Below, piece by piece: positions 48,466-51,713 of a stretch of DNA of 64,000 bases. Position numbers and translations under genes: made by a program. Source of the stretch: Vulcanimicrobiota bacterium (lineage in GTDB: Bacteria > Vulcanimicrobiota > Vulcanimicrobiia > Vulcanimicrobiales > Vulcanimicrobiaceae). The stretch covers positions 128,001-192,000 of the forward strand of contig CAWHWQ010000005.1 in NCBI GenBank assembly GCA_963833095.1, read 5' to 3'. The notes beneath the pieces are model-generated. The model was given only the letters and a program-made list of their open reading frames with translations. It was not told the origin of the DNA and did no database searches. Each line of letters begins with the position of its first letter. Within the stretch, counting starts at the first letter, position 1.

Positions 48466-50462
48466 TCATTGGCCGGGGCAGGACTGCCCGACGAGCAAGA
48501 TGCCCTTGAACGCGGCCCTGTCGCTGGTCGGGAAGGGTGCAGCGCCAAAAGGCTTCACGCAGTTCGAGGCAAGCAAGTACGCCATGATGGAGGCGTAAGT
48601 CGTCGGTGACAGCGAGCCGGGCGCGGTCAGCGGCATCTGCTTCGTAACGAACGTTCGCAACGCCGAGATGGTCAGATGCGATTGTCCGAATGCCGATCCG
48701 GCGAGCGCCGGTGCCGACACGCCTTGCAACTGCGCTCCGTGACAGGCCGCGCACGACTGCGTGTACGCGATCTTTCCCGCGGTCACTTGCGCTTGCGTAT
48801 AAGGCGCAGTTCCAGTTTGCATGACGCCGGAGGCAACGACGCTCGCGGCCGCGCTCTGTCCGGTTGTTCCATTGTGCACCGGGTTGGTTGCGCCGACACT
48901 GAACGCTATCACATAGTCGCCGTTCGTAGCCGGAAGATTCGGCGTCTTTTGATTTCCGGGCTCGCCGACCGTCACGACCAAATATTCTTGTCCGTCGATG
49001 CTGTATGACGAAAAAGGTGCGACGATTGCGCTGTGCGTCGCATACGTCCAGAGTTGTTTTCCGGTCTTGGTATCCAGCGCATAGAGATTGCCGGCGAGAT
49101 CGCTCGAGAACGTAAGGCCGGTCGAGGTCACCAGCGCGCCGCCCTGCGCTGGATAGGGCACCGGCGTTCGCCACGCAAGTTTTCCGGTTGAAACGTCCAC
49201 CGCGTTGACGATGCCCGTGCCGTCTTGACGTTTCGTCGGCGGGCCGCCGCGATAATTCTGTCCTTGTTGCCACGGCGGTTGTACCGCGTAACTCCGAAAA
49301 ACGCCGCATTCTTGTGTAACCGGGATGATGAAGTAATTCGTCGCGGCATCGTATGCGCCGCCGTTCCACTCCGCGCCGCCGCCATGATTCGGACAGGCTT
49401 TGAGTCCCGCCGGCGTCGGCGTCATGTCGAGCCCGTATTGATTGGCGACCGGCAAACGGTGCACGACCGCGCCGCTCGCGCGATCGAGAACGACGAAGTC
49501 ACCCGCTTTATCGGCGATCGCCAGGAGATGCCGGCTTTGCCCGTTCACCGTCCCGTCAAAGAGCACCGGCGGCATGGCGGGATCCGCATCGTGCGTATCG
49601 GGGTTGAGGATCTGGTAGTACCACTTCATCTTTGGCTGCGCGCCGGAGATATCGAGCGCGACCACCGAGTCACTGTAGAGATTCTTGCCCTTGCGCGTCG
49701 CGTCGGAGAAGTCCGGTGAGGCATTGCCCGGCGCGATGTAGAGTGTCTTGGTCGTTGGGTCAACCGACAATCCGCCCCAGAGGGCGGCGCCACCGTGTTT
49801 CCAGGAATCGCCGGGCCACGTCTCGTGGCCGGGTTCACCCTGCGCGGGAATCGTGTTCCATTGCCACAGCTTCGAACCGTCGGCAGCGTTGAAGGCTTGG
49901 ATGCTGCCGTTCCCGCCGAAATCGCCACCCGCGACACCAACCAACAACATCGTCTTATACGGATACACGGCCATCGAATACCAGTTGTTGGCCTGATTCG
50001 AACAGCCGGAAACGTTCCACACTTCTTTGCCCGTTGCTGCGTCGAGCGCGCGCACGCGGCAATCTTGCGTCGCGATAAAGACTTTATCAGCGGCGAGGCC
50101 GGCACCACGGTTCGTGGCAAAATCGAGAATCGCCGCTGGCGAGTAGGGCGAATCCCACTTCAGCGCCCCGGTTTTTGCGTCGAGCGCAAGCACGTGGTTG
50201 TGCGGAGTCGTGAGGTACATCACGCCGCTGGCAATGATTGGCGCGGCCTCTTGTTCGCCGACGTCGGCGAGCTGCGTGCTCCAGGCCGGCGCAAGCTGCG
50301 CGACATTTTGCGCCGTGATGGTCGACGTCACAGAACGATTGAAGCCAAGGTTGTATCCGGCGAGCGGCCAATCTCCCGCGGCCGCGGCGTTTGTCCCCGG
50401 TTGAACGATTGTGAGCATCCCGCCAGCATGGTGATCGCAAGAGCGACGGTGACGACCTTCAT
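48466..50462 (-). CDS. PQQ-dependent dehydrogenase beta-propeller with C-terminal cytochrome c, lipoprotein (frameshift near N-terminus)
   Basis: DWP..G, NRG, LDA.TG..W repeats, GNASP, NLYSDSVVALD, CPNHGGGAEW, CAACH...MP; signal MKVVTVALAITMLAG-C from ATG 50462 (SD GAGG) is out of frame with the main ORF. Confidence 0.88.
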
Positions 50463-50477
50463 ATCAGTCCTCGCAAT

Positions 50478-51072
50478 TCATGTGGTGGGATCCGGCAACT
50501 CCTTGAATGATTGTTTGACTCGATATTCACTATACGGATAGCGTGAGCGCAATTCCGCCCACTGCGTGAGCATCTCGTCGCTGTCGGGATCACGCCGGTA
50601 GCGAGTGACGCCGAGATAGTATTGCGCCTCGGGAGCCGCGTAACTCGTCGAGAAGCGGCGCAACACGTCGAGATAACAGCGCTCCGCTTCGTCCCACCGC
50701 TTCAAGCGCAAAAAGGCCAATCCAACGCGCACTGCAAACGCGCGACGAACTCGAACGGCGGCAAGAAGCCGTCCCAGCGATACATCTCGTAGCCGTCGGT
50801 ATTCATAATTCTGATATCCGGCGTCCAGATATGATGAATGGTGTGGAGAAACTGATTGTTCTTCGGGTCTGAGTTGTCGATCTGCACGGGGATCGCGTGC
50901 GCGGTGATCGCTTCTCTGACCAGGTCTTGTGGATACGTCACGGCATCCAGCGCTTGGCATCCCCCTCAACCGGGGTTAAAGATTCCAGGAGAACGAATTT
51001 TCGCTCGTCCTTTGCGCGTTCGAGCATGGCGGTATAATCATGCTGCCAAAAGTCCGCTTCTTGCGTTTCCAT
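50478..51072 (-). CDS. Thioredoxin-fold + TPR protein, putative selenoprotein (U-G-G-C)
   Basis: Stitched: METQEADFWQHDY..AKDERKFVLLE/FNPG-TGA-GGCQALDAVTYP...IWTP...GFLPP/..AAPEAQYYLG; TGA at 50966-50968; two single-base frameshifts. Confidence 0.75.
50930..50949 (-). promoter_or_regulatory. Candidate bacterial SECIS hairpin
   Basis: UGGAUGC-CGUGAC-GUAUCCA starting 16 nt after the in-frame UGA; G in the second loop position. Confidence 0.6.
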
Positions 51073-51135
51073 ATCGTAAGCCTATCACATACCGGCTATG
51101 CTCAGGCAACAGCGGTCGGGCAGACTCTGCCCTCA

Positions 51136-51713
51136 TGGGAGACTGCTACAGCCTTGCCCGGGCACTCGTTGTGCCCAATCGTCCGAACGGCGCCGGCGCG
51201 ATTTCTGCAACCCTGGAACGCTTCGGCAACGGCGCTCTTCGTTTTGCCCTCGATCGTCAGACACGTGTCGCGCCACTCCATCGCGGCGAGAAATATCGCG
51301 AGGCCTCGCCGGCGCTCGCACGCTTGGGCATCGACGTCGATGCGTGGCCCGCGCCGCCGGCCGGCCTCTTCGTGGTGGAGGAGCGCACCGTGTATCTGCG
51401 TTCGCGCAGCGCCATGACCGTCGCGCACGAATTCGGACATGCCCTCGACTGCGCACTCGGCAACGGCGTCTATCGTTCCGGCATCGATCCGCACATTCGC
51501 CGGCTCTTCATCGACGCGCGCAGTTTCGTAACGCCATACGCGGCCACCGGCATCGATGAATATTTTGCTGAGGCGCTCCGCGCGTTCGTGGAAGCGAACG
51601 ATCCCGCATCGCACTGGCCGCGCGCTACGAAGGCGCGCCTACGAAACATCGATCTGGGACTGTACGAATATGTTGAGCGCCTCTTCCGCGTTGATTTTAG
51701 CGCGGCGGCGTAG
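51136..51713 (+). CDS. Zn metallopeptidase, anthrax lethal factor/Pro-Pro endopeptidase-like
   Basis: VAHEFGHALD (HExxH), TPYAA and DEYFAE third-ligand motif; no signal peptide; probable start ATG 51136. Confidence 0.8.

Follow-up and report, generated by a model that had tools for sequence, protein, structure and literature searches.

A predicted thioredoxin-fold selenoprotein with a tetratricopeptide repeat tail in an Eremiobacterota gene split by assembly errors

The window analyzed here is a stretch of 64,000 nucleotides from a Vulcanimicrobiota bacterium (positions 128,001 to 192,000 of contig CAWHWQ010000005.1, assembly GCA_963833095.1). Its minus strand at 50478-51072 very probably holds one intact gene of ~198 residues, in which UGA codon 36 is decoded as selenocysteine (Sec) via a hairpin inside the coding sequence (CDS). 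The encoded protein combines a thioredoxin fold with tetratricopeptide repeats (TPR). The gene is intact once two missing bases are restored, the TGA is conserved among related loci, distant homologs have cysteine in its place, the hairpin is under selection, and the lineage possesses Sec machinery.

Gene structure and assembly errors

In the window the gene is spread over three reading frames. The N-terminal piece opens at ATG 51072 and has the translation METQEADFWQHDY...KFVLLE. The middle piece contains FNPG, the in-frame TGA at 50968-50966, and then GGCQALDAVTYP..., also given after the same FNPG and TGA as GGCQALDAVTYPQDL...RLQCAL. The C-terminal TPR piece, ...AFLRLKRWDEAERCYLDVLRRFSTSYAAPEAQYYLGV...KELPDPTT, is closed by the stop TGA at 50480-50478. 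According to Pfam, the thioredoxin-like domain lies in the middle piece and the TPR repeats in the last one. An earlier note, made from the sequence alone, had stitched these pieces into one thioredoxin-fold and TPR gene and had placed the TGA at 50966-50968 at the first position of a CxxC-type site. Both statements hold: the three frames of 50478-51072 were found as described, and the site reads U-G-G-C. The features of the locus are as follows.

50478..51072, minus strand: whole CDS of the predicted thioredoxin-fold and TPR selenoprotein, 198 codons plus stop once the two missing bases are counted
50966..50968, minus strand: UGA predicted to be read as selenocysteine, residue 36, which opens the redox motif U-G-G-C; conserved column, unchanged in the contigs of four public runs
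50957..50959, minus strand: TGC, codon of the putative resolving Cys in U-G-G-C; 41/42 full-length homologs also have Cys here
50930..50949, minus strand: putative hairpin of the selenocysteine insertion sequence (SECIS) type; 5' arm 50949-50943, loop CGUGAC 50942-50937, 3' arm 50936-50930
50939..50941, minus strand: GTG in the hairpin loop, false start of gene callers that yields a truncated ~150-aa 'TPR repeat protein' (open reading frame 50702..50941; database entries begin V/M-TYPQ...)
50983..50984, minus strand: assembly error, one base missing, which shifts the N-terminal piece relative to the Sec-containing piece; T or C present in 7/7 relatives, one base added in 4/4 runs
50723..50724, minus strand: assembly error, one base missing, which shifts the thioredoxin part relative to the TPR part; base present in 7/7 relatives, one base added in 4/4 runs
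50478..50480, minus strand: TGA acting as the true stop codon of the gene, according to the frame reading

In the alignment to seven relatives, the window alone is without one base after 50984 and one after 50724, close to where single-base corrections had been proposed in the earlier note (about 50980 and about 50725). The stretch 50300-51300 was also compared with Logan contigs (depth 4-13) of the four best-matching public runs. Contigs of all four runs add one base behind 50723 and one behind 50983, and the added bases give GAT-ATC (Asp-Ile) and TTT (Phe) on the gene strand, which are the residues of the relatives. Run X1 covers the whole stretch with 0 substitutions, and no other letter than those of the TGA is present at 50966-50968 in the near-identical contigs of the four runs. 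On these sequence comparisons, the two frameshifts are assembly errors and not biology. Run X4 additionally contains a second contig over 50774-50960 (depth 5.5) with 14 differences in 187 bases, which stops short of the TGA and suggests a co-occurring related strain.

The earlier note had cautioned that the TGA could be a miscall of TGC or TGT, in which case the protein would be an ordinary CxxC thioredoxin-TPR protein. The region does contain assembly errors, and Cys forms of the family exist. However, since one base is restored at each site and the TGA stays unaltered in the contigs of four runs, these contigs argue against a miscall and against a pseudogene alike. Moreover, 57/57 independent loci of other genomes and of metagenomes share the TGA at this column, and a miscall is hardly credible.

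Frame errors are found in other parts of the assembly (2.8 Mb, 8 contigs, 80.7% complete) as well. Contigs of 4/4 runs omit 2 letters at 50404, which brings the signal peptide of a dehydrogenase dependent on pyrroloquinoline quinone (PQQ) back in frame. As for the region near the end of contig C8 (C8 1-55675), 10 of 29 orthologs are split by 14 frame changes in tblastn against the nearest relative, compared with only 2 in 37 on contig C5 around the window. Frame changes were counted in this way because 1-base gaps in blastn against the same relative are too noisy at 87% identity. At C1:38199-39100, two adjacent selB-model matches occupy separate open frames of 222 and 219 codons, and the relatives have one 406-codon frame there; we take this pair to be a split tuf gene. 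The completeness figure may thus result partly from frameshift-rich patches, besides missing DNA. Given such local indel errors, 'pseudogenes' of this metagenome-assembled genome should not be taken at face value.

Conservation of the in-frame TGA

A six-frame search of 41 genomes (the window genome and 40 relatives) detected the gene in 27 of them. Relatives carrying it are named Candidatus Eremiobacteraeota, Vulcanimicrobiota, or Baltobacteraceae. Each of the matches to the part with the Sec codon has exactly one in-frame TGA, with identities ranging from 91% to 45%; among the 25 further matches with one TGA (down to 45% identity), 19 were inspected by eye and 6 were not. TGA occupies the same column in 19/19 ortholog loci of related Eremiobacterota genomes, at protein identity down to 55%. 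The motif is FNPG-U-GGC, with FNPH before the TGA in 2 loci and FSPT in 1. In the 17 loci with a complete gene, reading through the TGA from stop to stop gives an open frame of 196-276 codons, with one TGA and no frameshift. The called CDS of the nearest relative is 195 aa.

Regarding more distant homologs, a profile-free HMMER search of 1.84 billion representatives reports 1398 matches at E <= 0.001. Among the best 150 of the 1398, 61 are short proteins starting at query positions 38-47, just past the Sec column, and about as many are full length. The presence of Cys homologs at the Sec column is a criterion for selenoproteins, and the 42 aligned full-length distant homologs have C there in 36 cases, S in 3, W and N in one each, and a gap in the last. 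The +3 column is Cys in 41/42 of them.

A metagenome scan started from P0183, a short form and distant homolog with 33% identity to the query of the HMMER search, yields 41 loci. Three of these, L134, L137, and L138, are unrelated BamD-like TPR lipoproteins and were dropped from the TGA count. All 38 remaining loci have TGA at the column, six codons upstream of a false ATG start, and the N-terminal thioredoxin segment ahead of it is open and conserved. The x-x positions vary among them (UGGC, UGSC, UIGC, UGAC, UKGC, and UHGC). Taken with the 19 ortholog loci, TGA conservation at the same column (57/57 other loci) is, as judged from the alignments, far beyond chance.

Another explanation is that UGA is reassigned genome-wide in this lineage, so that the residue would be Trp or Gly and not Sec. 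Full-length public calls with W at the Sec column (FFNPG-W-IGC) do exist, namely, P0131, P0296, P0304, P0307, P0314, and P0338. The W in these entries, however, probably reflects a TGA translated as Trp under table 4 by gene-calling programs, which would be the best explanation, and such entries would mislead surveys of Sec versus Cys members. TGA also serves as the stop of the gene itself. Since one UGA would be Sec and another is a stop in the same mRNA, UGA would be read by context, which argues against a genome-wide change. In addition, most frames of genome G009 delimited under table 11 (TGA = stop) align at full length with the window genome, and relatives carry tRNA-Sec, selA, and selB. 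Reassignment is therefore barely conceivable.

Hairpin downstream of the TGA

A 7-bp stem-loop located 16 nt past the TGA had been predicted from the sequence alone, and it is found exactly to the base: the arms UGGAUGC (50949-50943) and GUAUCCA (50936-50930) enclose the 6-nt loop CGUGAC (50942-50937), with G at loop position 2, followed by U. The distance from the UGA is 16 nt to the stem and 23 nt to the loop. When folded alone, the hairpin has −8.3 kcal/mol, and 9/200 shuffles are at least as stable. According to the Fig. 2 legend of PMC13188914, a bacterial SECIS (bSECIS) has a loop of 3-9 nt, a stem of 4-16 bp, G in loop position 1-2, a distance of 16-37 nt from UGA to loop, and minimum free energy <= −7.5 kcal/mol; the consensus is attributed there to Zhang & Gladyshev 2005. 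All four constraints quoted there hold for the hairpin of the thioredoxin-TPR gene. Unlike the general consensus, it lies inside a conserved peptide motif, D-x-V-T-Y-P, and would be a putative SelB site.

Across 20 sequences, 95% of cells are paired and 5/7 pairs are invariant. One variable inner pair alternates between G-U and A-U, and the outermost pair is often open. In the stem, the partner of each wobble base is set by the encoded amino acid: Asp GAU contributes a U that faces the A of Tyr UAU, Tyr UAU a final U that faces the A of GAU, and Thr ACG a G that faces the C of an Ala/Thr codon. Since the partners are fixed in this manner, three codons are expected to be frozen and the wobble bases of the loop free to drift, which is the pattern observed. 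Thus, stem codons +7 GAT, +10 ACG, and +11 TAT are single-codon in 58/58 sequences (50 distinct). In the loop, codon +8 is GCC, ACC, ACA, or ACG, and the codon at +9 is split between GTG (32) and GTT (26); for Pro +12, all four codons occur.

The same is seen for the 19 relatives, in which only 4 of 47 conserved degenerate columns are single-codon, all of them in the hairpin (4/11 in the +1..+12 window vs 0/36 outside; columns past +94 unscored, one relative's locus cut short). The support for the RNA element therefore comes from suppressed synonymous change and not from covariation, and by this measure of codon usage the hairpin is under selection, with a conservation of its stem wobble bases far beyond chance.

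As for its spread, the stem GGAUAC/GUAUCC and the loop NGUNAC are common to Eremiobacterota and to distant metagenome members at about one third protein identity, and database relatives of the latter are named Desulfobacterota. The stem thus stays identical in sequences in which only about one residue in three is shared. The conserved SECIS would be locked in place because it is written in codons of the conserved D-x-V-T-Y-P peptide. It is possible, though at somewhat less than even chances, that the SECIS of the Sec form ranks among the best-conserved ones known from bacteria and that Sec decoding is a general, unreported trait of Eremiobacterota. If true, either an ancient Sec form was kept across phyla, or the Sec allele spread horizontally with its SECIS more than once.

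Sec machinery and points against Sec decoding

Several points speak against Sec at codon 36. Sec insertion itself is a prediction at the level of sequence. The four public runs come from one study, possibly including the source sample of the window, and were compared as contigs rather than raw reads, and the 38 metagenome loci are a set biased to the hairpin-encoded motif, with MDTVTYPE as one search pattern. Regarding the hairpin, it is no better than shuffles when folded in 59 nt (z +0.94, 170/200) and 49 nt (131/200), and thermodynamics alone is weak evidence for the element. None of the 7 pairs is changed on both sides in the 20 sequences, i.e., there is no covariation, which is impossible here because each stem wobble base pairs with an amino-acid-fixed base. 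An Rfam scan of 50400-51200 at E <= 10 returned only 4 chance-level matches and no SECIS family. In the assembly, selA was not found, nothing exceeded the cut-off for selB, and tRNA-Sec was not found either (the best RF01852 match, 44.8 bits vs a cut-off of 47, is tRNA-Ser); aragorn reports 41 tRNAs and no SeC.

The earlier note had also proposed a search of the genome for the Sec genes. selD is present (G000:C2:93046-93966, G000 being the window genome; 384.6 bits vs a cut-off of 125, no internal stop), whereas selA, selB, and tRNA-Sec are found in relatives only. These three exceed their cut-offs in 5/5 relatives searched, among them two assembled as a single contig and one that belongs to a different family of the class, and sit together in a stretch of about 22 kb. 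The nearest relative has its sel cluster at 157-178 kb on a contig of 312 kb. Synteny links positions 181-56427 of this contig to contig C8 of the window genome, from 55675 down to base 3, and the remaining ~254 kb has no counterpart in the assembly, bar one 1.6-kb match. Since synteny ends at the C8 end, about 100 kb before the relative's sel locus, the absent locus points to an assembly gap and not to a deletion.

The window genome also contains a formate dehydrogenase alpha gene, fdhA (G000:C8:13701-16637, TIGR01553, 1017 bits), with TGA at C8:14172, the canonical Sec site. Its context is ...ARI-U-HSSTVPGLG..., with a GC-rich hairpin (7 bp, loop GGUCU) behind it, and by these features fdhA is a second selenoprotein gene in this genome.

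These results bear on the explanation that the strain lost its Sec machinery and that the locus is a decaying pseudogene, a former selenoprotein gene gathering frameshifts. Such decay would fit the two 1-base deletions and the in-frame stop within 600 bases of the window, as well as selA, selB, and tRNA-Sec not being found in the assembly. However, both bases are restored in contigs of 4/4 public runs, and frame errors are not confined to this gene (50404; 14 in 29 orthologs near the C8 end; C1:38199-39100). Furthermore, synteny halts at a contig end with the following ~254 kb lacking a counterpart, and both selD and the Sec-type fdhA are intact. The pseudogene explanation is largely refuted and very unlikely.

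Reads, machinery, and homologs, the three places where the earlier note had expected its Sec reading to fail if wrong, were all checked, and none refutes it: in particular, Cys is found at the Sec column in 36/42 full-length distant homologs and TGA in 19/19 and 38/38 loci. No paper linking Eremiobacterota with selenocysteine or selenoproteins was found among Creative Commons-licensed PMC articles and bioRxiv; the genes described here indicate that members of this uncultured phylum use selenocysteine.

Protein fold and predicted function

The read-through ortholog exceeds the Pfam cut-offs for Thioredoxin_7 (35.7 vs 27) and Thioredoxin_2 (PF13098; 28.7 vs 27), and TPR_6 passes as well. The window's own frameshifted middle piece reaches only 24.8 bits on Thioredoxin_2 (cut-off 27). 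An AlphaFold2 model built with 43 sequences has a predicted local distance difference test (pLDDT) of 96.3 and a predicted template modeling score (pTM) of 0.91. In the model, residue 36 is placed between the strand 26-32 and the helix 37-46, at the N-terminus of the helix, and paired helices span 106-192. No N-terminal signal peptide was seen by inspection in the Eremiobacterota form. The metagenome Sec member L098 (509-1153) has a signal-peptide-like N-terminus, MKNLILAAALLNFLIANS..., and some family members are probably exported, unlike the Eremiobacterota form.

Regarding the mechanism, the hairpin in the CDS would recruit SelB with Sec-tRNA(Sec), so that Sec would be inserted at codon 36. 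The outcome would be a U-G-G-C redox center at the N-terminus of the first thioredoxin helix. Its selenolate would attack a substrate disulfide or an oxidized thiol, Cys39 would then resolve the selenenyl-sulfide, and the TPR part may serve as a surface that binds a partner or substrate. The most likely role of the protein is that of a selenol/thiol-disulfide oxidoreductase whose TPR tail would bind a partner.

Family membership and related systems

The 'Thiol:disulfide interchange protein' selenoprotein family is described in a 2026 review as PF13098 with UxxC (PMC13188914), and a 2022 review also lists it as PF13098, UxxC. The former attributes the family to Kryukov & Gladyshev 2004. Zhang et al. 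2006 report it in Geobacter metallireducens, G. uraniumreducens, and Syntrophus aciditrophicus (PMC1794560), with three published sequences of ~190 residues each (supplementary file 4 of PMC1794560). The published pattern is ...LLDFFNPG-U-IGCKQMDAV(T/A)YP...WTP...APEA.YL.GV...YPDSEW..RA.PY.LL (PMC1794560).

The thioredoxin-TPR protein shares with this family the length of ~190 residues, the order of thioredoxin fold and helical tail, and the same Pfam families. By eye, it also has the common motif LLDFFNPG-U-x-G-C-x-x-(M/L)-D-A-V-x-Y-P, with later WTP and APEA.Y..GV blocks, and FNPG-U-GGC is a UxxC site within a thioredoxin fold. P0349, a Cys form from Geobacteraceae, shares 35% identity with the Eremiobacterota protein (E 2e-39, 179 residues) and, in a comparison by eye, is much like the sequence published for G. 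uraniumreducens. The published sequences appear to be the same family as the L111-type loci and P0349 in motif, length, and block order, as compared by eye. In contrast to the published family, the hosts are Eremiobacterota/Baltobacteraceae (soil, drinking-water, and peat metagenomes) and not Desulfobacterota, x-x is G-G in the Eremiobacterota form instead of I-G, and the C-terminal end is without ...PYRLL. The sequence likeness supports placing the thioredoxin-TPR gene in the known Thiol:disulfide interchange selenoprotein family, with the lineage being new.

As for tetratricopeptide repeats, no prokaryotic selenoprotein paper mentioning them was found among the papers searched, and the term has 0 occurrences in PMC13188914. 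According to NCBIfam, none of 7 read-through Sec forms exceeds any cut-off. The best match is DsbD, below threshold, and the selenoprotein models (VPGUxxT types 1 and 2, Trx7/PDZ, and TsoB) reach at best 26.6 vs 275 (NF041383) and 49.5 vs 805 (TsoB).

The best PDB matches reported by Foldseek are DsbD-gamma (1uc7), Thermus thioredoxin, and DsbH and similar domains. DsbD gamma matches the N-terminal ~110 residues (E 2.1e-6, TMt 0.71, root-mean-square deviation (rmsd) 2.8). Unlike the DsbD gamma, Thioredoxin_7, and DsbH types, the protein has no membrane domain, would have Sec where they have the first Cys, and extends into a TPR tail. Escherichia coli YbbN/CnoX (3qou), a chaperedoxin, has the same order of thioredoxin and TPR and ranks 4 in Foldseek (E 5.5e-6, 194 aligned columns). 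Its global superposition is poor (TMq 0.41, rmsd 11.8), and YbbN has ~280 residues; on this structural comparison, the likeness is one of architecture, not of membership.

Database annotation

That standard annotation would miss the gene had been anticipated in the earlier note, and this is what the databases contain. All 120 listed homologs of the Eremiobacterota form are calls of 126-158 aa with 63-79% query coverage, and the six that were fetched begin just past the TGA. Most listed homologs of the Desulfobacterota form are likewise 126-158-aa calls, and the calls of both groups are named 'TPR repeat' or 'hypothetical'.

If taken at face value, such calls would mean that the UGA is a real stop and that the locus has two products, a 35-residue peptide and a TPR protein of ~150 residues started from GTG/CTG in the hairpin. 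However, the 35 codons ahead of the TGA are kept in frame in all loci examined, and the Cys forms encode both parts as one chain. In the model the thioredoxin fold would need the upstream strand 1 together with the downstream helix 1, and it is the full-length read-through that exceeds the Pfam cut-offs for Thioredoxin_7 and Thioredoxin_2. Two separate products are highly improbable.

A single read-through protein would make this locus a clean case of a selenoprotein still truncated by public annotation, although its family was predicted ~twenty years ago. A model built for this family, which none of the NCBIfam models detects, would put many hundreds of database entries right. The novelty lies in the lineage and in the persistence of truncated annotation; the family, the motif, and the mechanism had already been predicted, and no new biological question arises.

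Neighboring genes

The gene neighborhood provided no functional lead, and the downstream gene differs between the window genome and its relatives. In the window, positions 48466-50462 of the minus strand encode the dehydrogenase that depends on PQQ, which has a cytochrome c domain at its C-terminus (Pfam: PQQ, 220 bits; Cytochrome_CBB3). Its lipoprotein-like signal peptide (MKVVTVALAITMLAGC...) sits in another frame, and in the relatives this dehydrogenase is not the downstream neighbor. On the other side, a divergent open reading frame at 51150-51713 (plus strand) has the zinc-peptidase motif HEFGH (HExxH) and a weak Pfam match to Peptidase_M90 (E 0.0077, below the cut-off). Antisense translation upstream of the ortholog in genome G007 suggests that an HEFGH-type neighbor is conserved there.

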